Positions 4,575-38,064 of a stretch of DNA of 64,000 nt are shown here, piece by piece; the first letter of the stretch is position 1; each line of letters starts with the position of its first letter. The DNA lies in UHGV virus genome UHGV-0179428; one strand, given 5' to 3'. Origin of the DNA: a virus. Made by a program: the position numbers and the translations under genes. The notes beneath the pieces are model-generated. The model did not search any database. It was not told where the DNA came from and saw only the letters and a list, made by a program, of their open reading frames with translations.

Positions 4575-7062
4575 TTTTTACTCCTTCGTTATACACCGCA
4601 GGCAATGTCACCCCTTCCGGTTCGATGACACAGTACGATGCTTCATTAAGTTTAGAATGAACCTCGGCTTCGTGGGAGACTACCAACAGTTGAGAAAATT
4701 CTCCCGAGTTTGCTAACGTTTTAATAAAGCCGACCAGGTTGTTACGGTGCTCCTCATCCATACCTTCCGAAGGCTCATCCAAAAGCAATGGAAACTGATG
4801 CAACTTCAGCGCTTTGTACGCGGTCAGCCTGAACATCAGATTAAATATCGCACGCTGCGCCTTAGACCCTTTACGCACGTCAGGAACAGGCTCAGGATGC
4901 GTTTTTAGCTGGACAGGAAAAGTATAATCCAAATCACCGTCAGTGAGATCGCAAGGCATGACGCGCATGGGGTACGTCCAGACCTGTTCGATATAACGCG
5001 TCATTAACTCTGTGATTCTAACGATAGCGTTGTAAAAATACTTTCTAAGCACACCCTTTTCTGGCGAGAAGGCTTGAATCATCAGTTTGTTATTGAACTG
5101 CTGGGCTTGCAAGTCAGCAAGTTCGCGTTCCAAACTGTTGAGCTGATTCAATTCATTTTCCATCTGACGATAACGTTCGCGTGCGGTTGTAAAAGCATCC
5201 AGCTTCCCTTCTCGTGCACGTAAGAGTTCCTCGACGACTGTATTTGTCAACGTAACCTTAACATCACTCTCTAACCGTTCGAATAACGCACTGAAATCAT
5301 CTACAGCACGTTTAACATTCACCAGATAGGTAAGTGTCGTGTTAGCCAGTTCGTGCTCTCTACGACGCATTGAGAGCATCTCTGTGGCTTTACCTAATCG
5401 CGACTGTTGGAAAGCGATTTTCTGTTGTAAAGCACCATCGACGTTACCAACGGCCGCTACGGCATCCTGCCATTCTTTTTCCGCTTTCACTAACCGTTGT
5501 CGGGTTTCATGGTACTCAATAGCAGAGTACAACTCACTGTCAAACGCTGCGCATAGGCTCCCGAACTGCTCGCGTGATTCTGTGAAAACGTTACGTTCTT
5601 GCAAACGCTTAAAGAACATGCTCAATACCGGGTCCTTTGAATACGTCAGTACAATCTCACGAACCTGTCGCATATAAGTTACATCGGATTCTAACTCAAC
5701 ACGATCGCGTAATAGGGCCTCTAACTGCGTTTGTAGTTCCGTGCGCTGCTGTTGTTGTCCGCGAATCGAAGACTCAAGTTCAGGTAAAGAACGTGTAACA
5801 CCAGGCCGAAACTTAAACCGACACTGCGGACAATCCACTTCTGCTGTTTCTAAGTAGTGATTACGCTCATGATTTAAATTCTGTAAAACGTTCTCCACTC
5901 GCTGGAGTCTATCCCGCAACCCTGCGGTTTTTTGATCCATCACCAGAAGCCGTTCTTCCAAAACATTGAGTTTTTCGGTTGAATGAATTGCGTCCAGTGT
6001 TGTTCCTAACCGTTGCCCCCAGACACGCGCATCGGTAGCCGCACGAAGTTGGTCTAAATTGACGTTGTCGTTAAATAGACCCGGAAAGAGATGCTCGGTG
6101 TCCCATTTGGTAAGTAACTCACGTAAACGTGCCAGCGTATTCTTGAGACCTTCGTGATTCCGCATCAGGTAGTCTTGTCGTGTCGACTCATCCATTAATA
6201 ACGACAAGTCTTTATTCAACATCGATACCTCTGTTTCAGTAGAAACAACAGCTTCGCGGGCGGTCGCTTCGTTTTGTCGCGCGACCAGTATCTGTTCATC
6301 AGTAGGCAATCCACCACGATGTTGTAATATTGCGTCGATGGTTGGACCCAAGCTGTTTAATAACGCTTGGATTGTTTCGATGGTGACGGCACGATTTAAT
6401 CCTGGCAACTGTTCGATTTCTCGGTTCAGTTCACGTAAATCCGATTCCAAACCTTTTAATCTCGTCGCTAACTGCTGCCGTTCTTCCTCGTTCTCAATAA
6501 CGCGCGTCCGTAATTCGGCGATCTTACGGCTGGTGATTTCAATACCCCCATTTAAAGCAGTAAGGTTTTTACGCAAACGTTGATAAAACCCTAACGCGTA
6601 AGTGAGGTCAGAGGTACTTAAACGGTAAAACCACTTGCGGCGTAGTTCGGTTCCCGCGTCAGTTAACAACACCTCACCATTTAATAGTTCTTTAATCTCT
6701 TTCGTAATACCCGTGATTTCTTCAACACGGGAGTTGTAGACTTTCGCATTACCTTGCTCGACGATCTTTGTCCCCGTGGTCAAGTTCTCAATATCACAAA
6801 CCAGTGAGTTGCCTTTACGGGCAACTTTGAATCGATAGCGTTGATCGCCAACTAAACAGTAGTTTGTGTAAGAACCTCCGTCCCTGAATTCGGTTTTAGC
6901 CGGTGCTAAGGGTAAGAACACAGACAGTAGACTGGTTTTCCCGCAGCCGTTCCCACCCAGGATAATTGTTGTCGGTGACTGGATAGTGAAATCGAAGGTT
7001 TCAATTTCATGTAACCCCATCCCCGTAAAACCTTTGAGTATAATGCGTTCAACTTTTAGCAT
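4558..7062 (-). CDS. SMC/Rad50/SbcC-like ATPase with coiled coil
   Basis: ORF track 4558-7278; preferred ATG at 7062 after GGAGGTG; N-terminal Walker A GGNGCGKTS, long central coiled-coil region with CPQC, C-terminal Walker B LLLDEP and VVSHE. Confidence 0.7.
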   Translation of the reverse strand: MLKVERIILKGFTGMGLHEIETFDFTIQSPTTIILGGNGCGKTSLLSVFLPLAPAKTEFRDGGSYTNYCLVGDQRYRFKVARKGNSLVCDIENLTTGTKIVEQGNAKVYNSRVEEITGITKEIKELLNGEVLLTDAGTELRRKWFYRLSTSDLTYALGFYQRLRKNLTALNGGIEITSRKIAELRTRVIENEEERQQLATRLKGLESDLRELNREIEQLPGLNRAVTIETIQALLNSLGPTIDAILQHRGGLPTDEQILVARQNEATAREAVVSTETEVSMLNKDLSLLMDESTRQDYLMRNHEGLKNTLARLRELLTKWDTEHLFPGLFNDNVNLDQLRAATDARVWGQRLGTTLDAIHSTEKLNVLEERLLVMDQKTAGLRDRLQRVENVLQNLNHERNHYLETAEVDCPQCRFKFRPGVTRSLPELESSIRGQQQQRTELQTQLEALLRDRVELESDVTYMRQVREIVLTYSKDPVLSMFFKRLQERNVFTESREQFGSLCAAFDSELYSAIEYHETRQRLVKAEKEWQDAVAAVGNVDGALQQKIAFQQSRLGKATEMLSMRRREHELANTTLTYLVNVKRAVDDFSALFERLESDVKVTLTNTVVEELLRAREGKLDAFTTARERYRQMENELNQLNSLERELADLQAQQFNNKLMIQAFSPEKGVLRKYFYNAIVRITELMTRYIEQVWTYPMRVMPCDLTDGDLDYTFPVQLKTHPEPVPDVRKGSKAQRAIFNLMFRLTAYKALKLHQFPLLLDEPSEGMDEEHRNNLVGFIKTLANSGEFSQLLVVSHEAEVHSKLNEASYCVIEPEGVTLPAVYNEGVKIVYAN

Positions 7063-26733: not shown

Positions 26734-29700
26734 ATGCCGAGAGAAGACGCGGCGCAGTTTAACGGTACGCTAAGCACAGTGACGTACCCTAACCGATTTA
26801 ACGTGGTCATTCCGCCTGAAGGACCTTTTTATCGTATCGGATTAAAACTCACAGTAGCCGACGATACCGCGCCTAACGGACGTCGTACTCTGATTGAGGG
26901 GTTGGACTACTATTTAGGCTATTACTTTAAAGAACTCGCAGAAGCTGAACAAGATCAGATTTATGGCGGGTTTATGTTGCTTACTGCAACAGAAATCGAA
27001 TATGAGATTTTAGGGGTAGCACGGCAGTATCGTGTACCGCAATCTGAAATCGGGAAGTTCTTAGTTCGTACTGACCTGAAAGACCCACGTAACGTGGACT
27101 GGTCGGAGTTAATGGCGTACGCGCCGGTTATTCAACCAATCGACCCCCCTGCTAACTTAGAAGAAGCTATTCTGAGGGACGAGGTCGTTAAAGCGTTGAA
27201 CGATATCCGCAAGAAAATCATTCAGCGTTCAACAGAGTTAGATGCGGCCTTCACCGAAGTCACTAACCTGATTTACGAGAACGGTAAAAAGATTTTCGAT
27301 GAAGAACTATACCAACACCACCTTAATCCTAACGCTCACCAGTATACGACCAATGACGTTGGGGCCCTTCCGGTTTTAGGACGTGCTGTTGACGCTACAA
27401 AAGCGTTTGGGTTGACAATTGACCAACTGGCTACGCTGATGGGTTCGGCGGGCATTGAGCAATCAGACGTTGAACAGTTAATGGGCGAAGCCCTCGGTAC
27501 CGTTTACGGTCGTTGGGGTACCACGAACGGTAATGAACTAACGTTTAAAACACCGGGTGGACACATCATCAGCATCCGTGGTGATAAGTGGTTAATTACT
27601 TCACCACAACCGTTAGTGATTAAAGCAGACCAAGACAACAACGAATCCGGTTTGGCGGTTGAGTTTAGTGCGGGGCTGAATACGCTTTGGGTACACTCTG
27701 GGTCAGAACAGGATGTATTAGCACCGGTCTATAACTCTGTGTATTTGGTTACACCAGAAATGGTGAACATGTACCTGACGTCTGTAACGTTACTTGAAGC
27801 GAACGCCTATTTCAAATCGTCTGACACCGTAAAACCGTACGGTACAGCGAAGCAGTCTAACCCACTAACGTTGAATGCGAATATTCCCACAGCAACCGAG
27901 TCGGTTTATGGGGTGTTTTCGATTACGAATATCGCAACCTCTGTAGCGCTAGGCACTGCTATTTCCCAAAAGGCTGTGACCGAGTTAAAAAACCGGTTGG
28001 ACTTGTACGTTGATGATAGCTACACGGTTAACGGTAAAGGGTTTGTTAAGACAGGCGACAACATGGTGTTAACCTTAACGAAGGCCGATTTCGGTATCGA
28101 TAAGATGAATAACACCACACCCATCGCTAAACCGGTAACAAAAGCATTAGCGAACGTGCTGAAAAATAAAAGTTTGAAGGTACACACGCACACTACCGCT
28201 GATTTGGATAATGTCCCGATTGGTAGCGCAACAGTGGACGGTATCTTACAGCTGTGGGATGCGATTGATACCACGAATGATAAAGCCGTTACATCACGCC
28301 AAGGGTGGTTGTTCGCAAAAGAGATTAAGAAGGTCTCTGATAAACTGAATACCCTCTTGCCCGCATGGACAACGGCCGGGAGCAAATATACCAACAATTC
28401 GATATTGCCGATCTTGTCGATGGGTAATTACGAAGGTTATGGTAAAAACATGGATGCGCTCCAGATGGTTATAGGGGTACAACAAGGTAAGCTTTACGCT
28501 TTAATTAGTTCTAAATCTGCCCTTCCGGGAACTGAGGGTATTTATTACGCTGTTGCTGGGTTAAAAAACGACAAAAGTCTCGGTGAAATTTACAAAACAA
28601 CTTTCCGTTATAAGCCGAAAGGGTTAGAGACGAATTATCCGGGGGTGGAACTAAAAGAAATTACCGTTACTGGTACCGAAGCATTTATAGCGAAGGGCAG
28701 CGACGATAATTATTATTTAGTTAAACTGAACGGTTCAATGGATTACACCAAACATACCGATGTCAGGTTGGTAACTTTCTCAGAATTTGTTTCAGAAACA
28801 ACATGGGAATTTGTGCCGAATATGTTCATGGATCGTGTGGTCATAGCCGATAACGGCGTCTATGTTTTGCGTACGATGCTAATGGCCGATCTGAAAAACA
28901 ATAGTCTGGTGGACTACATTAAGGATACTCCGCAACCTATGTTCCGTGTTGGGTTATTGCGGCTTAATAAAACCGATCGGTTTGAACAGGTTGATTTAAG
29001 CTCTACACGAAAAATCGGTAAGTGTGCCGATTTGGTTGAACCTGGCGCGTTCGATGTAGATAATCCGAATACGAAGCGTCTTGCCTACTTCACTGCGGAA
29101 GGCAAAGCGTTGTGGACAGTGAATTTACAATTAACTAGAGGGGTGTCAAGATGGATAACGCCCGTTGTTAAGGACGGTCACTTGTTAACCGTCGGCGTGT
29201 CTGGCGTTTGTCTTGGTTTTTCTTCAACGAAAGGTACCACATTCGGGCCATGGAATGGTGCTTATCGTCTCGACCTATTAACCGGGGAGGTTGGGTTAGA
29301 GACAACTAACATCTTCCCAATCAAAATCGATACTACAGGTTGCTACTTAAAAGACGGAACAAAAATAGAGCTGAAATGGAAATGGGCTACTCGAAGTTCT
29401 GGCTATATGACCGACAATAGAATCTGTGTCGGTGATATGGTTTATTCTTGCTGCTGTTCGACAGAAAAACAACTTGCACCATCTCTCCATTACCAGAAAC
29501 TCCCAGAAGGAGTTAGTTATCTGGACTATGTTAAGTTGAGTGCGGGGTATGAGGGGCAATCTACGTTTGAAAATCGGATAAACCCTGTGGTGGGTTCGGT
29601 GTGGAAACCGTCTATGACCTTCCCATTGTTCTTCCCAGGAACAAACAAAGTATGGCTTAAACATCAAAAAACGGCTTATTTCATTGAAGCCGAATATGAT

Positions 29701-31920
29701 AAAGATACGACTTATGGTTATCCTGGATACGGCGGGTTTGGACCAACATCCCGCCGTGTTGAAAAAAAAGCGAACGAATACGGCGTATTGACAAATATAC
29801 CGCTGGTTGTTACGCCAGACATACCGAAAGGTCTACTAGATGGGGCTTACTTTATCGGTGCTGAAAGTAAACCATGTAAAGTTGTTTACGGTACCACTAC
29901 GGTGGCTAGTGATCGGTTGTCTATCGATGCGGCAGAATGGGCGAAGTTGACTAATATTGTTCAGTCCAGCCAGTTCTCTGGGGCTTCTAACGGCAACGCC
30001 TATGAGCGGATTAGCGTAGCTAAGACCAAAAAGAACAACTACAGTTTGTCCTTTTGGGTGCTTGGTCAAACGATGTCTGGTGGTCCGCTTTGTATCGCGA
30101 TAGTGAGTCTTATCTATAAAGACACTGACGGGGTAAATAAGTTTGCTTTTTACTTCTTTCAGGTAAAACCGACTATAACCAACGGGGTCATAAGGTTCGT
30201 TAGTTCGGAAGCGAGAATGATGACGTTCAGGGAAAAAGTGGCCAGTAACGCCATTAATCTCTCACCCACAGCTTTTAATGGTGAACTTAAACAACGCTCC
30301 GGTCAAGTTTTCCTTTATTCGCAAGACGGACAAAAGTTCAGATTCTCAATACATAACCTGGTTGGCGGGAATCTTGTAGGATCAGAGATTTCTTTTGCTT
30401 TTGGGATAAACTTGACTAAAAAAGGAGAATGGTTTACCGGCGAAATTCATCGGGCGTGGGGCTATACGTATACGCTGAATAATACATCTGAAGTCTATAT
30501 ACCCGATCTCTCGGGCATCGCGCTATTGACTTGTAACTCGGAAGATTTAAACGAGTTGTATCTCGGTGGCGAACAGTATAGAATCTCTGATTTGTTTAAC
30601 AAAAAATATACTGTTATCGATAAGATTATTATTGGCGGCGTACAAACACAGAGCGGTTGGAATTTCTATCTGACGGAGGAAACCGAGTTAAGTTTTGGAA
30701 ATAAAAGATATACCGTTCCAAGATGGTCCGTTGATTTAAGCGATGAATTCCCGACTAATCACGCTAACCAGACATTCTACGTTTATGCTGAAGTGGTCGG
30801 TTCTACTGCCCAATACCGCATCGGTTTAGAGCAGTTAGCTGATACCTCGTCGAGACTGTTTGTTGGGACAGTAACCACTGATTCGAACCGTATTACGGAT
30901 ATCAGTATCGATAAAGTAAAACGGTTAGGTCGTGTAAAAGAGCTGGAAAATCATGCCTCGGTTGTTGATCAGCACGATGTGGCGCAGGCGTTCGACAGGA
31001 AAACTGGTCCACTATTAACAGTGGTTAATAAACCCGTTAAAGCCATTACAGCATCTGCGAGCAAGGGTGCTGGGTATGTCGATGGTCAGAAATGGAATAC
31101 GTTGTCCGGGATTGCAACGCGGCCCAGGTTGCCGGTACAGGAAACCTATTCAGGTTATAAAAGTATCAGCAGGGTGGCGTATGAGAACTGCGCTGACCAG
31201 TTCTGGCAGAAAGCGGTTGCTGCGAACGTTGCAGCGGCTACTGCTTCTGAGAACAAACAAGCAGCAACCGCGAACATGAAGTGGTTGGGTGCGTATACGA
31301 AACCGACTACCGGCGAGTATGCATATCTGGCATTGAGTCTGCGTGTTAAAGTACCTGGCGATCCTGGTACTACTAATCGTCGACTGAAAATCAGGCTTGC
31401 GGCCCCGACAGGTATAACTCAAGTTCGTTACGGGCTAAATCAGTCTGGCGGTACGATGACTGAACAGACAGTAACATTAACTGCTAACAGCTATCTGGAA
31501 AAAGAACACGCCGGATTTAAGCCAGCCGAAGAAGTCCGTGTACATGCTACGTTTGTCATTCCAAAAAATGAATACGATAGCTACCGTACGAAGTTCGGTG
31601 CTGTTCAGCTGATTGACGTTGAGTCGAACACTGTCATTAAACAGACAGATATCGACACACCGTTTATCGTGTATACCGACACGGAGTTAGCAGCACAATC
31701 TGGTTTGGTGTATAAAGCGGTTAAGGGTCAGTTCCATCAACTCCCGTCTCAACCTGTCGTCATTGTAACTGATGGACAGACAGGGACTACGCCACCGGTG
31801 AAAACCTCGTTTGCTGACGGGACATTAACGGTCTACGTGGCAACCACGTACGACGCGGTGAATCCAGCACAAACGCGCGATATCGATAAGCTCCAGTTCA
31901 ATCTTATGTTTACATCTTAA
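26734..31920 (+). CDS. giant tail fibre / receptor-binding-like protein 3 (1728 aa)
   Basis: ORF track; AGGAGTCTTTACG-ATG; N-terminal GPFYRIGL...GLDYYL module. Confidence 0.7.
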   Translation: MPREDAAQFNGTLSTVTYPNRFNVVIPPEGPFYRIGLKLTVADDTAPNGRRTLIEGLDYYLGYYFKELAEAEQDQIYGGFMLLTATEIEYEILGVARQYRVPQSEIGKFLVRTDLKDPRNVDWSELMAYAPVIQPIDPPANLEEAILRDEVVKALNDIRKKIIQRSTELDAAFTEVTNLIYENGKKIFDEELYQHHLNPNAHQYTTNDVGALPVLGRAVDATKAFGLTIDQLATLMGSAGIEQSDVEQLMGEALGTVYGRWGTTNGNELTFKTPGGHIISIRGDKWLITSPQPLVIKADQDNNESGLAVEFSAGLNTLWVHSGSEQDVLAPVYNSVYLVTPEMVNMYLTSVTLLEANAYFKSSDTVKPYGTAKQSNPLTLNANIPTATESVYGVFSITNIATSVALGTAISQKAVTELKNRLDLYVDDSYTVNGKGFVKTGDNMVLTLTKADFGIDKMNNTTPIAKPVTKALANVLKNKSLKVHTHTTADLDNVPIGSATVDGILQLWDAIDTTNDKAVTSRQGWLFAKEIKKVSDKLNTLLPAWTTAGSKYTNNSILPILSMGNYEGYGKNMDALQMVIGVQQGKLYALISSKSALPGTEGIYYAVAGLKNDKSLGEIYKTTFRYKPKGLETNYPGVELKEITVTGTEAFIAKGSDDNYYLVKLNGSMDYTKHTDVRLVTFSEFVSETTWEFVPNMFMDRVVIADNGVYVLRTMLMADLKNNSLVDYIKDTPQPMFRVGLLRLNKTDRFEQVDLSSTRKIGKCADLVEPGAFDVDNPNTKRLAYFTAEGKALWTVNLQLTRGVSRWITPVVKDGHLLTVGVSGVCLGFSSTKGTTFGPWNGAYRLDLLTGEVGLETTNIFPIKIDTTGCYLKDGTKIELKWKWATRSSGYMTDNRICVGDMVYSCCCSTEKQLAPSLHYQKLPEGVSYLDYVKLSAGYEGQSTFENRINPVVGSVWKPSMTFPLFFPGTNKVWLKHQKTAYFIEAEYDKDTTYGYPGYGGFGPTSRRVEKKANEYGVLTNIPLVVTPDIPKGLLDGAYFIGAESKPCKVVYGTTTVASDRLSIDAAEWAKLTNIVQSSQFSGASNGNAYERISVAKTKKNNYSLSFWVLGQTMSGGPLCIAIVSLIYKDTDGVNKFAFYFFQVKPTITNGVIRFVSSEARMMTFREKVASNAINLSPTAFNGELKQRSGQVFLYSQDGQKFRFSIHNLVGGNLVGSEISFAFGINLTKKGEWFTGEIHRAWGYTYTLNNTSEVYIPDLSGIALLTCNSEDLNELYLGGEQYRISDLFNKKYTVIDKIIIGGVQTQSGWNFYLTEETELSFGNKRYTVPRWSVDLSDEFPTNHANQTFYVYAEVVGSTAQYRIGLEQLADTSSRLFVGTVTTDSNRITDISIDKVKRLGRVKELENHASVVDQHDVAQAFDRKTGPLLTVVNKPVKAITASASKGAGYVDGQKWNTLSGIATRPRLPVQETYSGYKSISRVAYENCADQFWQKAVAANVAAATASENKQAATANMKWLGAYTKPTTGEYAYLALSLRVKVPGDPGTTNRRLKIRLAAPTGITQVRYGLNQSGGTMTEQTVTLTANSYLEKEHAGFKPAEEVRVHATFVIPKNEYDSYRTKFGAVQLIDVESNTVIKQTDIDTPFIVYTDTELAAQSGLVYKAVKGQFHQLPSQPVVIVTDGQTGTTPPVKTSFADGTLTVYVATTYDAVNPAQTRDIDKLQFNLMFTS

Positions 31921-31960
31921 CGCCACGAGACAAGGACGTCTCGGATTAAGGAGAGTGGCC

Positions 31961-33160
31961 ATGGCCTCCATTGTATACCAATACCCTTTAGATTTAACGG
32001 GAAGCCTAACCTCTAACGCCGTGGAGCGTCAGGTTACGTTAGGTACAGGTAAAGTTAACCGTGCGTTTGCTTTTCCTGATGGACCGTTTTATGCCGATAC
32101 GTTCCGCTTGCGGGTTGCCAACCGACCCGATGCGACGTATGAGCGCGGAACGGACTATGAGTTGATTTTTGCACATCCGGCTTACGAGAAATTGACGAAG
32201 AACCGGGAAGTGGTAATGGCGGTTGTTGTAACGAACACCGCCATTCCGACCGATATCACGGTATCGGCGCAAGTAGTCGGGGGTCCGCAGTCTGCAAACG
32301 TGACTGCGATAGAACAGGCGATTGCTGAGTTGAATCTCGATAATCGAACTGTCGGCTTTAAAGACTTGCGAAATGTTCCTGATACATTTCCGTCAGCACC
32401 AACGTATAAAGACGTCGGTGATATTTACGGTTTCGAATATATCATTACAGTGCTCGCTGGCATTAAAGATGCGATAACGGCGGGCGATGCTGTACAGCTT
32501 GAGAACATCAAAGCGATTCTCGAAAGCCTGAAAAACGATTTCCTGGACGCGCTGAACGCACACATTAACGCCACGGGTAACGTCCACCATCTGGATATTC
32601 ACCAGGTTAACGGGTTAACAGAAACGGAGATCCGTGCACTTATCCGTGATGTACAGTCTGCCATCGATGCAACCATTACCGATATTAATGCGTTGAAGAA
32701 AGCAGATGAAGCGTTAGGAAAACGTATTGATGCTGTTGTCAAATCTTTGGAAGCGTGGAACGACCAACTTAACATCGTTGCACAAAACTACCAGAAAATG
32801 GCATTGGCATTGGCGAACCTAAATTCGTTAGTGTTACAGTTACAGAAAAATATCAACGATCTGAACACCAAACTCAACCAAGCGATTCAGCGCATTGCTG
32901 CGTTAGAACAGCGGGGTAATGAGTCCGATCAGAAAATTGATAATCTGCAACAAAACCTGGATGCGCTTAAACAACAGGTTGCGAATAACACGAACGCAAT
33001 CAGTCAGGCGAATCAGAACCTACAAAACCATATTGCGGCAGATAACCCACACACGGGCTATCTCCACAAGAAATACGGTGGTGTGGTTCAGGCTCCAGTG
33101 CACGTTAACGCTAACTTGACGTCCCGTGATGACGTTCAGGCAGAAGCGGGTACGAAATAA
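31961..33160 (+). CDS. fibre-like protein 4 with coiled coil (399 aa)
   Basis: ORF track 31955-33160; ATG at 31961 after AAGGAGAG; N-terminal GPFYADTF...GTDYEL module; heptad-like Q/N/L-rich region. Confidence 0.7.
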   Translation: MASIVYQYPLDLTGSLTSNAVERQVTLGTGKVNRAFAFPDGPFYADTFRLRVANRPDATYERGTDYELIFAHPAYEKLTKNREVVMAVVVTNTAIPTDITVSAQVVGGPQSANVTAIEQAIAELNLDNRTVGFKDLRNVPDTFPSAPTYKDVGDIYGFEYIITVLAGIKDAITAGDAVQLENIKAILESLKNDFLDALNAHINATGNVHHLDIHQVNGLTETEIRALIRDVQSAIDATITDINALKKADEALGKRIDAVVKSLEAWNDQLNIVAQNYQKMALALANLNSLVLQLQKNINDLNTKLNQAIQRIAALEQRGNESDQKIDNLQQNLDALKQQVANNTNAISQANQNLQNHIAADNPHTGYLHKKYGGVVQAPVHVNANLTSRDDVQAEAGTK

Positions 33161-33227
33161 CTTTATTACAGGAGGAACTATGCTTATGGGCGTAGTCCTC
33201 CATTCTTTTTTATTTTAAGGATACGTG

Positions 33228-33623
33228 ATGGCGATCAGTGTTAAAAATGTACGTGACCGAATCACCAACGTAGAGAACCAAATGGCAACTGGCCCACGTG
33301 TTGATCCGCAAGTTGCGTCGAAAGCACATAATGCCGCCGACACTTTTTCGGGTTGGACGCCAAGTCGGTTAGACTGCGGGGGGAGTTGCAGCTGGACGTG
33401 CTCAAACGGTTGTACGCATGGCTGTACGAGTTGTTCGGGCACCTGTACGTCAGTGTGTGTAGGTAGCTGCTCCTCTGCGTGCGGTAACCAGTGTACTGGA
33501 TGTAGTTCAACGTGTTCCGGTGGCTGCTCAGGTTGCAGTGGGACCTGTGGGGGTGCTTGCTCGGGCCGTTGTTCTACGGGTTGTTCTGGTGCTTGCTCTG
33601 GTGGCTGTTCTGGCCCAACCTAA
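33228..33623 (+). CDS. Cys-rich (C-x3-C)n protein 1, candidate rSAM substrate / precursor
   Basis: ORF track 33225-33623; ATG at 33228 after AAGGA; about 60-aa N-terminal region then about 70 aa of C-x3-C repeats with S/G/T spacers starting at LDCGGSCSWTCS. Confidence 0.75.
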   Translation: MAISVKNVRDRITNVENQMATGPRVDPQVASKAHNAADTFSGWTPSRLDCGGSCSWTCSNGCTHGCTSCSGTCTSVCVGSCSSACGNQCTGCSSTCSGGCSGCSGTCGGACSGRCSTGCSGACSGGCSGPT

Positions 33624-34030
33624 GAGGTGAAAAATGGCAATTGGATTACCTGCGCTACAAGCGCGGCTAAATAACATTGACAACACTGCATTGAAGAATA
33701 CGGGTGCAGTACAAAACTATATTCGTGGGAAAGCGACGAACAACGCAGACTTATTCGGTGGGCAAGCTCGCAACCACTATGACTGTGGTGGGAGCTGTAG
33801 CTGGACCTGTTCGAGCTGTTCTGGTGGTTGTACAGGGAACGCATCAGGCGGCTGTGGTTCTTCCTGTTCTGCAAACTGTGTATCAGGTTGTAGTGCAGGC
33901 TGTAGTGGATGTTCGAATACCTGTTCTGGTGGCTGTTCAGGAAGCTGTACGGGGAGTTGTTCTAACTCGTGTGTAGGAAACTGTTCTGCAGGCTGCTCAG
34001 GTAGTTGTTCTGGTGGGTGTTCTGGGAGGT
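33390..34030 (+). repeat. low-complexity TGY/AGC/GGN codon repeats encoding (C-x3-C)n
   Basis: Visible periodic Cys codons every fourth codon across two adjacent genes. Confidence 0.7.
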
Positions 34031-34032
34031 AA
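33634..34032 (+). CDS. Cys-rich (C-x3-C)n protein 2, candidate rSAM substrate / precursor
   Basis: ORF track; AAGAGGTGAAAA-ATG; same architecture, core begins YDCGGSCSWTCSS. Confidence 0.75.
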   Translation: MAIGLPALQARLNNIDNTALKNTGAVQNYIRGKATNNADLFGGQARNHYDCGGSCSWTCSSCSGGCTGNASGGCGSSCSANCVSGCSAGCSGCSNTCSGGCSGSCTGSCSNSCVGNCSAGCSGSCSGGCSGR

Positions 34033-34034
34033 TT

Positions 34035-34241
34035 GTGATTAGCCTTAAGAACCTTCGTGATCGGTTAGTAACAGCGGAAGGGTATATTACGACCGCTAAC
34101 GCAAACAACTATATTGCAAACCAGGGCACTGTGTCTTCAACCAATAACCTTGCCGGTTTACCTTTAAGCCATTATAACTGTAACGGTGGATGTAGCTGGT
34201 CGTGCAGTGGTAGCTGTAGTAAAGGTGCGGGGGGAAGGTAA
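34035..34241 (+). CDS. Cys-rich protein 3 (short paralog), candidate rSAM substrate
   Basis: ORF track 34005-34241; GTG at 34035 after GGGAGG; VISLKNLRDR N-terminus parallels protein 1; core YNCNGGCSWSCSGSCS. Confidence 0.6.
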   Translation: MISLKNLRDRLVTAEGYITTANANNYIANQGTVSSTNNLAGLPLSHYNCNGGCSWSCSGSCSKGAGGR

Positions 34242-34390: not shown

Positions 34391-35278
34391 ATGAAGAATG
34401 ATTTACATTTAGCGTACAAAACAATTTTCAATCATCCACTTCACATTTCTTCCCCTGATTCCGTACGTGCACACTTAGCAGATGAAGTTCGTCTGCTGAC
34501 TCAGTTGCCGGGCGAATGGCCTAAAGTGCGCGGACGTTTCTTTACCGATCGTAAAAACTATCGTGTAGAAAATACGTTTAAGATTCGTGATCTGACGGCA
34601 GAAAGTGTAGTGGTCTTTACCGGTGACTCCGAGTTGCGTGGTAAACTGGTTGCGGGTAAATATTTCTTTAGTGACGGGATTTTGAATAACTCCGTAGATA
34701 TGGAATTGTTCTTTACCCCATTTGAAGAAATGGGCGCAAAACCGGTTGCCCGTCGTTGGTGGTCACCGGATTACTTAGGCTCGTTCCCGTATTTCTTTAC
34801 CCTGGTAACACCAGAAACGAAGAACTATTTCGATACGGAATCGTATATCGAAATTGAAGGGTACGAAGCGTTAGGGATTAATTGCTTAGCGGATTTAATG
34901 GCGTATAGCTATAAGTTCGTGTGGGATCGTGAACGTTCCGTGTGGGTTGCCCTGACGGATGAACACGAAATCACAAAACGCATCCGTAAGCCTTGGATGC
35001 AGCATTTGATTCAAACGCGTATTGGCGAGCATCCGTCAACAGAAGCGGATCTGGCAAAACTCGTTAGTTTCTTAATGACGAAAGTCACGTTAACTGACGA
35101 AGAGAAAGCAGCAGTGTCGGCGGTGTTGGACCGTAACGTAACGTTAGCGGATTTAGAACGTTTAAATGTCCGTTATAAAGACCTTAACCGTGTTTTGGAA
35201 GCGTATAACTCTCCATTTTTGTTAACCCCTGGTGCTAACGTAGACGACGATCCTTTGTTCGCCATTGATTATATTTAA
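34391..35278 (+). CDS. hypothetical protein in rSAM cluster
   Basis: ORF track 34379-35278; ATG at 34391 after GGAG. Confidence 0.7.
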   Translation: MKNDLHLAYKTIFNHPLHISSPDSVRAHLADEVRLLTQLPGEWPKVRGRFFTDRKNYRVENTFKIRDLTAESVVVFTGDSELRGKLVAGKYFFSDGILNNSVDMELFFTPFEEMGAKPVARRWWSPDYLGSFPYFFTLVTPETKNYFDTESYIEIEGYEALGINCLADLMAYSYKFVWDRERSVWVALTDEHEITKRIRKPWMQHLIQTRIGEHPSTEADLAKLVSFLMTKVTLTDEEKAAVSAVLDRNVTLADLERLNVRYKDLNRVLEAYNSPFLLTPGANVDDDPLFAIDYI

Positions 35279-36223: not shown

Positions 36224-37529
36224 ATTCCCTAAGCAGTTAACGTATCAGATCGTAACCAACCTTTCGTGTAACCTGGACTGCGAATATTGTTACGAACGTA
36301 AGTACCCGCGTAACAACAAAGCGGCTGACATTGTTGATTTCTTACACGCCTGTTTTGAACGTGATAAAAACGAACCGAATGTTGAAGTTATTATCGACAT
36401 TATCGGTGGTGAACCGTTCATGCAGCCTAAACTGCTGTTGGCTGCGTTTGAAACCGCTGAGCAGTTGTGTAAAGAACACAACCGACCGTTTATGTTTAGT
36501 ATCTCCACGAACGGAACGCTGTTAGATCGTCCGTTGAACCGTGAGATTGTAGAACGTTGGAAAGATAAACTTTCGGTTGGGGTTTCGATTGATGGCTTAC
36601 CTGAATCCCATGACCGTTATCGTATCTTCACAACAACACGCCAGGGTTCTTACGAAGCCGCAGTACGTGGCTATAACTACTTAAAAGAGGTTGGCATTGC
36701 AGAGCTCGGCGTAAAAGCAACCTTTACGTTAGAAACGCTGCCGTTCTATGCTGCGGGGATGAAGTCATTAATTGACATTACTGGCGGTGGGACAATTTCT
36801 GGAAACGTAACTTTCGAAGACGTTATGCCACGTAGCATGGCGACGTCAATCGCTTTACAGATGATGGATGTGATAGATTACTGGGTTGAGAAAGGATTAC
36901 ACACCAACCCACGTAATATCCTATCGCATATCATTCCAGAAGGGTTGGATTTCGACACGATTTGGGAACCGAACTGGCGTGACCAGTTACTGTATAATGA
37001 CACCGTACGGTTGAACCCGGAACGCTTACGTCCGTTCTGTGGGACGTTAACGCACATGACGTGCTTAGGGTTTGACCGTAAGATCTTTGGCTGTAACCGC
37101 TTTATGTCAACGGTAACGTCGCGTTCTGCGGTGTTTGAGTTGGTAGGTCGGGAATTCGTCAGTCTGGACAACGGTAAATTGTTAGAAGAGATTCAAACGC
37201 AATATACCAACTACCCAGAGACCTGTTTAGGTTGTCCGATGAAACACGCTTGTGGTAGCTGCGCAGCGGCTTCTTACGAGAACGGGGAAGGAACGTTAGA
37301 AGACCGTAAAGCGTATCACGCTGAACGACGTCAGTGTGGCTGGACGACAGCGAAACTGATGGTGGCGGAATACTGGAAACAGAAGATGGGTACGACGTCA
37401 GCAAAAGCGTTCCACGACACGAGTATGTGTTATTGCCCACGCTGTGTTCGTGAACGTGCCCAAAAGGAAAAATTATTAAGAGAAGCCAAAGATGAAACCA
37501 ATTCTGATCAACAATATTACGAAGCGTAG
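36207..37529 (+). CDS. radical SAM enzyme 2 with SPASM-like C-terminal Cys-rich domain
   Basis: ORF track; CNLDCEYC, GGEPF, C-terminal CLGCPMKHACGSC plus further Cys including CYCPRC; 17-nt overlap with upstream rSAM gene. Confidence 0.8.
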   Translation: MSQVNEFPKQLTYQIVTNLSCNLDCEYCYERKYPRNNKAADIVDFLHACFERDKNEPNVEVIIDIIGGEPFMQPKLLLAAFETAEQLCKEHNRPFMFSISTNGTLLDRPLNREIVERWKDKLSVGVSIDGLPESHDRYRIFTTTRQGSYEAAVRGYNYLKEVGIAELGVKATFTLETLPFYAAGMKSLIDITGGGTISGNVTFEDVMPRSMATSIALQMMDVIDYWVEKGLHTNPRNILSHIIPEGLDFDTIWEPNWRDQLLYNDTVRLNPERLRPFCGTLTHMTCLGFDRKIFGCNRFMSTVTSRSAVFELVGREFVSLDNGKLLEEIQTQYTNYPETCLGCPMKHACGSCAAASYENGEGTLEDRKAYHAERRQCGWTTAKLMVAEYWKQKMGTTSAKAFHDTSMCYCPRCVRERAQKEKLLREAKDETNSDQQYYEA

Positions 37530-38064
37530 AATTCGACTTCTGGATAAGTTTCTGGAAAACAGTAAGCTATTTGGTTGTTATGTGGTGATTAACGGTGAAG
37601 ATTTTACCGATGACGTAAAACGCTTGCTGATTCGTCACGGTGTGACTGTAATCATCCCAATGTACTGCACCGAACTTACTGACCTGTCGGTCGCGGAAAT
37701 TGAAAAACGTAACCCAGGGTTTGAAGAACGGGTATTGGATTTCCCACGTCACAAAATTGCGTTTCTACGCCGCTCTTTAAGCGAACCCAGCGCAGAATCT
37801 ATCACTGTGTTGGCATTGTCCTTCCCCGGCATTACTATCTTCGCAACACGTAACCCGAACTCACCGATTGATGGGTTTTACGATGAGCGGGAGAAATTTA
37901 ATACCGTGATTTTTCCTGAGCTAACGCCAGAAGAATGCCAGGGTATCCGTATCGATTGGGAATCGGACTTCGACACAAGATTCCGTCATATCGATTTTGA
38001 ACTGTTAATCGAATTAGGGTTGATTAAAGGAGACGATGAATGTCTGCTACTGGTGAAGGCTTAA
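37492..38064 (+). CDS. hypothetical protein in rSAM cluster
   Basis: ORF track; overlaps 3' end of rSAM 2. Confidence 0.6.
   Translation: MKPILINNITKRRIRLLDKFLENSKLFGCYVVINGEDFTDDVKRLLIRHGVTVIIPMYCTELTDLSVAEIEKRNPGFEERVLDFPRHKIAFLRRSLSEPSAESITVLALSFPGITIFATRNPNSPIDGFYDEREKFNTVIFPELTPEECQGIRIDWESDFDTRFRHIDFELLIELGLIKGDDECLLLVKA

Follow-up and report, generated by a model that had tools for sequence, protein, structure and literature searches.

Several described systems resemble a locus that we analysed in a stretch of 64,000 nucleotides from a virus (UHGV virus genome UHGV-0179428; hereafter the window). This locus encodes three tandem cysteine-repeat proteins (paralogs 1 to 3), a 295-aa protein, and two radical S-adenosylmethionine (SAM) enzymes, the second of which carries a SPASM domain. 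The nearest described relative is the CXXX-repeat system (target family TIGR04114, Pfam PF27846; TIGR04115; TIGR04117), in which, as in the window, a long run of C-x-x-x units is encoded next to a SPASM enzyme. To our knowledge, the CXXX-repeat/TIGR04115 family is defined only in silico, and we found no experimental or descriptive paper on a CXXX-repeat target and its SPASM maturase in the searchable literature. CteB, the maturase of the SCIFF ranthipeptide CteA, represents the closest solved structure for the window SPASM enzyme, and PapB, which acts on PapA, its best-scoring characterised family. PapA carries cysteines at a regular four-residue spacing, similar to the window proteins, and freyrasin contains six C-x3-D thioether rings. 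Another precedent is set by the SPASM enzymes QhpD, which introduces thioether cross-links into the structural enzyme subunit QhpC, and anSME, which acts on a folded protein; in both cases the modified protein stays in the final assembly. Finally, there are phage tail fibres that need dedicated helpers, encoded by adjacent genes, for their distal part, and the cassette in the window likewise directly follows fibre genes. The fibre helpers known to us are chaperones and not radical-SAM enzymes, and a literature search for radical-SAM enzymes acting on tail fibres, or for enzymatic cross-linking of fibres, found none.

Compared with these systems, the window locus is a divergent variant of the CXXX system that has its own N-terminal/junction family, three split subunits, a second radical-SAM enzyme, and a partner of orphan fold. 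The same gene arrangement is seen in phage loci whose enzymes are genuine members of TIGR04115. However, where gut-phage CXXX loci encode partners of ~200 and ~100 aa, the window has the second, small radical-SAM enzyme and the orphan 295-aa protein, and the N-terminal region and junction of its Cys proteins form a separate family, phrog_6085. Unlike CteB, the window enzyme has no N-terminal RRE, the leader-binding domain (recognition element) of enzymes that act on ribosomally synthesised, post-translationally modified peptides (RiPPs). Its presumed substrates have Ser, Gly, or Thr between the cysteines instead of Asp acceptors, contain 20–21 cysteines as opposed to six in PapA, and are proteins or fibre parts, whereas CteA and PapA are short peptides. 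The QhpD and anSME families are among the matches of the window enzyme, but they are related to it far more weakly by sequence, act on other substrate motifs, and lack a phage or fibre context. On balance, we favour the reading that the three paralogs are radical-SAM-cross-linked, fibre-associated structural proteins; the modification, its thioether nature, and the location in the virion are what we infer from comparative evidence.

A first-pass annotation of this DNA had described three tandem paralogs with related N-terminal regions, and both an alignment of the proteins and their common match to phrog_6085, a family whose function is not known (E = 1.5e-40, 4.7e-38, and 2.3e-24 for paralogs 1, 2, and 3, respectively), confirm this. 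The junction that it had proposed, (L/Y)(D/N)-C-(G/N)-G-x-C-S-W-(T/S)-C-S, is exact in all three proteins and is kept in their homologs; the lack of conservation that the annotation had named as refuting its reading was thus not observed. In paralog 1, ~49 N-terminal residues, comprising an amphipathic helix and then an NAAD-F-G segment, lead to the junction and to 21 cysteines separated by 20 consecutive CX3 or CX2 spacings. The spacing string of paralog 2 is 3323733332333333333 and is kept in the paralog 2 orthologs. Overall, the intervening S/G/T/N/A residues drift, but the distances between cysteines are kept at each position, a pattern that marks a defined structure as opposed to a drifting low-complexity tract. 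The residue three positions before each cysteine is mostly Ser or Thr, and the cores have a single Arg and lack Lys, Asp, and Glu. Paralog 3 contains four cysteines, not five as first counted; its GTG start codon is supported by Erwinia phage pEa_SNUABM_29, which has ATG at the same position. In an alignment of nine sequences (the three paralogs with their SPN3US and Erwinia orthologs), M1, I3, R11, C50, G52, C54, S55, C58, S59, C62, and G65 are invariant. Outside the three paralogs, the motif C-x-G-x-C-S-[WFY] occurs once in the 64-kb window, in a spurious short open reading frame (ORF). When 1.8 billion representative proteins were searched exhaustively with a profile of the N-terminal-plus-junction region, just 30 relatives were recovered, so this family is small and specific.

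The three Cys frames are real genes under purifying selection. In comparison with Salmonella phage SPN3US, the ratio of nonsynonymous to synonymous substitution rates (dN/dS) in the Cys frame is 0.13 for paralog 1 and 0.09 for paralog 2, and it exceeds 1 in the two shifted frames; for paralog 3, dN is 0.10 and dS is saturated. A ratio of ~0.1 that is confined to the Cys frame shows that the frames are translated genes. Each is preceded by a Shine-Dalgarno-like sequence (AAGGA, AGAGGTG, and GGGAGG before paralogs 1, 2, and 3, respectively), consecutive genes are just 10 and 2 nt apart, and the three genes are translationally coupled. A GC-rich repeat can produce open frames without coding for protein, and indeed there are several ORFs that overlap the triad in different frames or on the opposite strand, and RefSeq picked another frame in SPN3US. 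Nevertheless, the probability that these are not genes is negligible, as the idea is refuted by the selection test and orthologs persist at 66–74% nucleotide identity, the range measured against SPN3US inside the paralog genes. The ribosome-binding sites, the PHROG family, and the 30 representatives found in the exhaustive search also contradict it.

The two radical-SAM enzymes encoded next to the paralogs very probably act on them as substrates. Using a profile of 16 homologs, the closest solved structure to the SPASM enzyme is the thioether synthase CteB (5wgg, E = 5.6e-38), followed by anSME. The alignment to CteB comprises residues 104–429 and extends through the SPASM region, starting past the N-terminal leader-binding domain of CteB. 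The auxiliary-cluster cysteines C296, C340, C343, C349, C352, and C377 do not vary across 16 diverse homologs, and C278 and C286 are almost invariant. The score against the PapB ranthipeptide maturase family is 116.8 bits, well below the curated cut-off. Scores against TIGR04115 form a gradient, from 115 bits in the window to 157, 309, and 446 bits in three viral loci (L118, L132, and L181, respectively; L and P numbers denote our loci and proteins). The L181 enzyme passes the TIGR04115 cut-off (446 vs 350 bits) and that of L132 nearly does; therefore, the curated family includes phage members. Judged by these scores, the window enzyme is a distant relative of TIGR04115 and not an equivalog. 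Paralog 2 reaches 20.4 bits against the TIGR04114 CXXX repeat (cut-off 20), a match that is marginal by score and clear by inspection, and paralog 1 is not reported by this model. The small radical-SAM enzyme has SkfB as its closest PDB structure, and prophages encode its homologs together with the SPASM enzyme. The AlphaFold2 model of the 295-aa protein has a predicted local distance difference test (pLDDT) score of 86 and no structural neighbours in PDB or BFVD except its own ortholog, i.e., it shows an orphan fold.

Following a check suggested in the first-pass annotation, we find the Cys proteins together with radical-SAM genes in all loci examined for this. Beyond the close relatives, we took 69 further viral loci via an alignment of diverse homologs, in which the SPASM enzyme is 24–37% identical to that of the window over nearly its full length. 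An ORF with CXXX repeats lies within a few kb of the SPASM homolog in 66 of these 69 distant loci, usually directly upstream. At identity thresholds of 90, 70, and 50%, the 63 enzymes that could be extracted fall into 31, 23, and 12 clusters, respectively. As a rough control, a CXXX-repeat ORF was found in 6 of 80 loci around generic SPASM enzymes of bacterial genomes, drawn by the generic pattern CNLDCxYC and mostly representing unrelated SPASM enzymes. Metal-binding and disulfide-rich proteins can have regularly spaced cysteines as well, and the paralogs might be unmodified structural or metal-binding proteins, stabilised by disulfides or metal, with the radical-SAM enzymes acting on something else. 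We regard this as very improbable, given the difference between 66 of 69 distant viral loci and 6 of 80 generic ones, the radical-SAM gene that lies between the paralogs in L006, and the origin of the enzyme in peptide-modifying, thioether-forming lineages. On other viral contigs (L020 9534-10000 and L021 4069-4540), two small ORFs of 68–82 aa with dense C-x-x-C repeats (e.g., CLTCQTCNSCFNCDSCMSCYGCEYC) are located directly upstream of a SPASM radical-SAM gene; these represent a different Cys-repeat substrate type.

Conservation of the triad was followed in 19 SPN3US-like loci with SPASM enzymes 59–100% identical to that of the window. All 19 contain the triad in the same order, followed by the 295-aa protein and the two radical-SAM genes. 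The number of cysteines is 21 in every paralog 1, 20–23 in paralog 2, and 4 or 2 in paralog 3. In two relatives with 93% identity to the window phage (L006 and L018), paralogs 1 and 2 are separated by an additional, diverged small radical-SAM gene (303 aa, 6575-7486 in L006; likewise in L018), and the usual downstream pair of radical-SAM genes is retained. The cassette also exists in a distant phage contig (L004), which encodes three paralogs (two long, one short), a phrog_8030 homolog (29% identical to the 295-aa protein of the window, E = 3e-31), two radical-SAM enzymes, and a gp162-like protein. Using tblastn, we found the short paralog in 50 phage records with Salmonella, Erwinia, Escherichia, and Proteus as hosts, in all of which it is either unannotated or called hypothetical. 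It is the form that gene callers annotate most often in relatives, with a length of 68–69 aa. Paralog 3 is reduced to the N-terminal part and the junction and is nonetheless conserved, which suggests a separate function for this region, perhaps to nucleate assembly or to act as a cap. In L188 (6001-6633; ENA ERZ2916498, a 222-kb contig; protein P0196), paralog 3 has no stop codon and runs into a domain of ~140 aa, and P0200 represents a different extension of the short paralog by ~80 aa.

A seeming loss of the cassette in SPFM5-type phages was rejected as a sequence-record artefact that does not reflect biology. The record of Salmonella phage SPFM5 (L187; LR535903.1 92919-102960) matches SPN3US only in blocks of 63–70 nt, which are in forward orientation and in reversed order, as if the lines of a sequence file had been reversed. 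The genes annotated in this record, including a "radical SAM protein", are therefore artefacts. SPFM6, 7, 9, 14, and 15 share the 42-nt-only match of SPFM5 and are probably affected by the same artefact.

The reading of the Cys proteins shifts with phages in which the same module is part of a larger protein. Bacterial homologs of the SPASM enzyme exist at 33–40% identity, and both cases examined, Campylobacter pinnipediorum and Deferribacter abyssi, are prophage tail modules. In C. pinnipediorum the gene order is P2-like: baseplate J, tail protein I, a PF12571 tail fibre, a 250-aa protein, two radical-SAM enzymes, sheath, and tube. The PF12571 protein has the C-terminal end CNGCSGSCSGSCSSGC..., in a longer stretch GCNGCSGSCSGSCSSGCTACSGCSGSCSG. 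The D. abyssi module encodes a 302-aa protein in which fibre-type repeats precede the end KATNADQLGGQAGSYYRCSDCSWTCSSSC... (longer stretch KATNADQLGGQAGSYYRCSDCSWTCSSSCTGSC), followed by a C-terminal run of closely spaced cysteines; by sequence, this end corresponds to the leader-like segment, junction, and core of the window proteins. Its 250-aa neighbour is homologous to the 295-aa partner of the window (E = 4e-10), and the small radical-SAM enzyme is homologous as well. A third example is the 213-kb viral contig L118, in which a 568-aa fibre-like protein encoded after a baseplate wedge gene contains LGGQPPDFYTCGGSCSWSC and matches phrog_6085 at residues 443–481. The small radical-SAM gene of L118 seems to be split into ORFs of 71 and 157 aa (5065-5780), located between the Cys-tailed fibre gene and two more radical-SAM genes. 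The same design is found in P0213, P0216, P0217, and P0219, and relatives of 185–258 aa have a fibre-like N-terminal domain before the junction. Hence, leader-like segment, junction, and repeats recur elsewhere within tail-fibre-type proteins of 185–568 aa, either internally or at the C-terminus, and the Cys module of the window is homologous to fibre C-termini. In L142 (3976-6789), a 937-aa viral protein consists of an N-terminal domain of ~270 aa, ~200 aa of Cys repeats, and C-terminal repeats of the type W-K-N-x-D-G-T-G-T-G-T-G-P. For such repeats in mid-protein, and for the domain-extended paralog 3 of L188, we propose a putative role as spacer.

The gene neighbourhoods in distant viruses point in the same direction. 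Baseplate wedge, tail fibre, tail, or internal virion genes flank the CXXX protein in L118, L132, L181, L122, L147, L182, and L186, and tail genes do so in L025 and L024; L004 is an exception, and three other loci whose flanks were scanned gave no PHROG match. The Cys cores reach ~250 aa in relatives. From their genes and neighbours, the CXXX proteins of these loci look like parts of structural assemblies and not like precursors of small peptides.

Several observations weigh against a fibre-associated role. No fibre or baseplate-attachment domain is recognisable in the small proteins of the SPN3US type, and in profile-profile comparison of the N-terminal domain of the gut-phage CXXX proteins with that of the window proteins, only the Cys part aligns. 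The window SPASM enzyme scores 114.7 bits against TIGR04115, whose cut-off is 350 bits, with residues 10–371 aligned to positions 3–345 of the 359-position profile. The L004 cassette is surrounded by genes of non-structural type, namely nucleotidyltransferase, Acb2-like, GIY-YIG, and GroEL genes. An uncultured Ruminococcaceae contig (L033 12110-12890) contains three tandem ORFs of 59–70 aa with C-x3 repeats and SSK or GSK ends, ~3 kb from a SPASM enzyme, which look like classical small CXXX-type RiPP precursors. Short paralogous genes in a row whose products start with a leader-like segment are also the usual appearance of RiPP precursors. No RRE or similar leader-binding domain was detected by profile and structure comparison of the SPASM enzyme or by structure searches with the 295-aa protein. 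Finally, virion proteomics of SPN3US lists gp167-173 and nothing from gp161-166 (PMC5694885).

Some of these points fit a classical RiPP pathway, in which leader-plus-core precursors would be cross-linked by the radical-SAM enzymes and trimmed of their leader, and the peptide would be freed at lysis as a toxin, signal, or anti-defence factor. The paralogs are small, lie in tandem, combine a variable core with conservation at the N-terminus, and are encoded beside maturases of the CteB/PapB type; the L004 cassette lies beside an Acb2-like gene, and the bacterial CXXX loci hold small tandem peptides, as in L033. The first-pass annotation had proposed such precursors. Their two-part layout of N-terminal region and junction-core stands, and a role as radical-SAM substrates is very probable; however, the proteins are 131–132 aa long and the "leader" is internal in the fibre-fused homologs. 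What is not supported is the released peptide. When the six genes that begin with paralog 1 and end with the SPASM gene (not the two downstream genes) were scanned against Pfam, NCBIfam, and PHROG, no protease, exporter, or immunity gene was found, and the missing RRE argues against a RiPP as well. Moreover, junction and core are covalently contained in fibre-type proteins of 185–568 aa, cores extend to ~250 aa, the number of cysteines is fixed across lineages, and the short paralog is nearly coreless yet conserved everywhere. The RiPP reading is thus very probably right on enzyme and substrate and probably wrong on the product, and a released peptide seems unlikely to us. The alternative offered in the same annotation, cysteine-rich virion proteins with a common N-terminus, fits the comparative evidence better, and it combines with the radical-SAM link and does not compete with it.

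The virion proteomics suggested there as a check turned out to be a weak one. The published SPN3US lists do not contain the three proteins, but their ORFs are missing from or mis-framed in the public annotation, and the absence of gp161-166 is weak evidence on the triad for this reason. In SPN3US (NC_027402; L001 4950-5979, complement of ~143195-144222 in JN641803), paralogs 1 and 3 are unannotated, and the gene called over paralog 2, gp100/SPN3US_0166 (JN641803; L001 5426-5761), which corresponds to gp166, is in the wrong frame. Across the triad, many related phage records have no annotation. In addition, a search of SPN3US data from 2023 set carbamidomethylation of cysteine as fixed (PMC10052503). 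Because of this setting, and because the cores are almost devoid of tryptic sites, absence says little about the triad; VQIVEANMATGPR and NTTNVQNYIR are examples of N-terminal tryptic peptides of the Cys-repeat proteins. The absence of gp161-166 from the virion list could also indicate that the modified Cys proteins remain outside the virion, serving as an intracellular scaffold, chaperone, or redox/iron-sulfur helper of fibre assembly, and the position in the fibre module beside genes that the SPN3US annotation names tail assembly chaperone and DUF4376 would suit such a function. Since the module forms a covalent end or internal part of a structural protein in other phages, and since the virion list has little weight with the triad ORFs missing from public annotation, we consider an assembly factor quite unlikely.

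The preferred reading, cross-linked structural proteins associated with the fibre, is in line with the position of the cassette. The window belongs to an SPN3US-like jumbo phage, and its region has ~72% DNA identity to SPN3US and its relatives (Seoulvirus jumbo phages, ~240 kb). The gene order around the cassette is shared with SPN3US and comprises counterparts of gp168 and gp167, the Cys triad, and counterparts of gp165, gp164, gp163, gp162, and gp161 (Table 1). The cassette directly follows the gp168 and gp167 counterparts, whose SPN3US versions are virion proteins not belonging to the head. In SPN3US, gp168 is essential and a baseplate/tail-fibre candidate (PMC5694885), and gp167 was found in virions without a head flag (PMC5694885 Supplementary Table 1). 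The family of the gp167 counterpart, phrog_2163, is also matched by a gut-phage tail fibre encoded directly upstream of a CXXX protein. The gp162-like 190-aa protein accompanies the cassette. The 223-aa ORF at the DUF4376 position is a possible member; its DUF4376 label comes from syntenic genes (the SPN3US annotation and Pfam PF14301 in L188). Hairpins at 33171-33215 and 38734-38764 bracket the Cys genes and enzymes as one unit. Right after the cassette, three tandem paralogous genes encoding proteins of 176–180 aa are located on the minus strand (38791-40528), and two ORFs at this position in L188 carry Pfam DUF7941.

Table 1. Features of the cysteine-repeat cassette and its surroundings in the window (64,000 nt).
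Feature	Coordinates	Strand	Remarks
1728-aa protein, SPN3US gp168 counterpart	26734..31920	+	Assigned by synteny
401-aa coiled-coil protein, SPN3US gp167 counterpart	31955..33160	+	phrog_2163
Hairpin and U-run between gp167-like gene and paralog 1	33171..33215	+	dG -21.4 kcal/mol, z -4.7
Paralog 1	33228..33623	+	ATG, 131 aa, 21 Cys
Junction of paralog 1	33369..33404	+	LDCGGSCSWTCS
Paralog 2	33634..34032	+	ATG, 132 aa, 20 Cys
Junction of paralog 2	33778..33813	+	YDCGGSCSWTCS
Paralog 3	34035..34241	+	GTG, 68 aa, 4 Cys; stops just past the junction
Junction of paralog 3	34173..34208	+	YNCNGGCSWSCS
Accessory protein, 295 aa from ATG	34391..35278	+	phrog_8030; gp165 counterpart; ORF opens at TTG 34379
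Small radical-SAM enzyme, 307 aa	35300..36223	+	CNLDCSFC motif; gp164 counterpart
Radical-SAM/SPASM maturase, 440 aa	36207..37529	+	gp163 counterpart
190-aa protein, SPN3US gp162-like	37492..38064	+	Homolog after the SPASM enzyme in distant L004, E = 2e-12
223-aa ORF, last gene before the terminator	38040..38711	+	gp161 counterpart by position
Bidirectional terminator-like hairpin closing the unit	38734..38764	.	

We propose that two long and one short Cys protein, the 295-aa partner, the small radical-SAM enzyme, the SPASM enzyme, and the 190-aa protein form a self-contained maturation cassette. The SPASM enzyme, aided by the small radical-SAM enzyme and the 295-aa partner, would dock on the N-terminal segment and junction of the Cys proteins (NAD-x-F/L-G-G ... 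H-Y-D-C-G-G-x-C-S-W-x-C-S) and proceed along the C-x-x-x units, installing regular Cys-derived cross-links. These would most likely be thioethers, given the relatives of the enzyme (CteB, PapB, and the CXXX-target family). The Ser or Thr three positions before each cysteine would permit a chain of small rings, an idea that rests on analogy with the N-x-x-C and C-x3-D ranthipeptides and is a lead only. In this way, a chain rich in Gly, Ser, Thr, and Cys could be converted in the cytoplasm into a stiff rod resistant to reductants and proteases. The mature products would be tail-fibre or baseplate components of the virion, equivalent to the C-terminal Cys module of fibres, and not diffusible peptides. 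More speculatively, the module may represent a "cysteine-ladder" rod with ~20 to >60 serially cross-linked cysteines that serves as distal module or spacer of fibres in jumbo phages, P2- and lambda-like prophages, and many gut phages, and that is split into three subunits in SPN3US-like phages, where it perhaps forms a mixed three-chain tip via the N-terminal helix and the C-G-G-x-C-S-W junction. We put this forward tentatively, as a possibility that we ourselves doubt.

Three missing genes would be added to the annotation of SPN3US and of ~50 sequenced relatives. Should the fibre link not hold and the products be released peptides, these would nevertheless represent phage-encoded RiPPs of unusual size. 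If the favoured reading is true, radical-SAM peptide cross-linking would extend from secreted natural products to virion architecture, and a rigidity similar to that provided by disulfides would be attainable inside a reducing, often anaerobic, host. It would also assign a function to the uncharacterised TIGR04114/TIGR04115 families, which are common in phages including those of the human gut, and would reveal a host-recognition component that standard proteomics is unlikely to detect.

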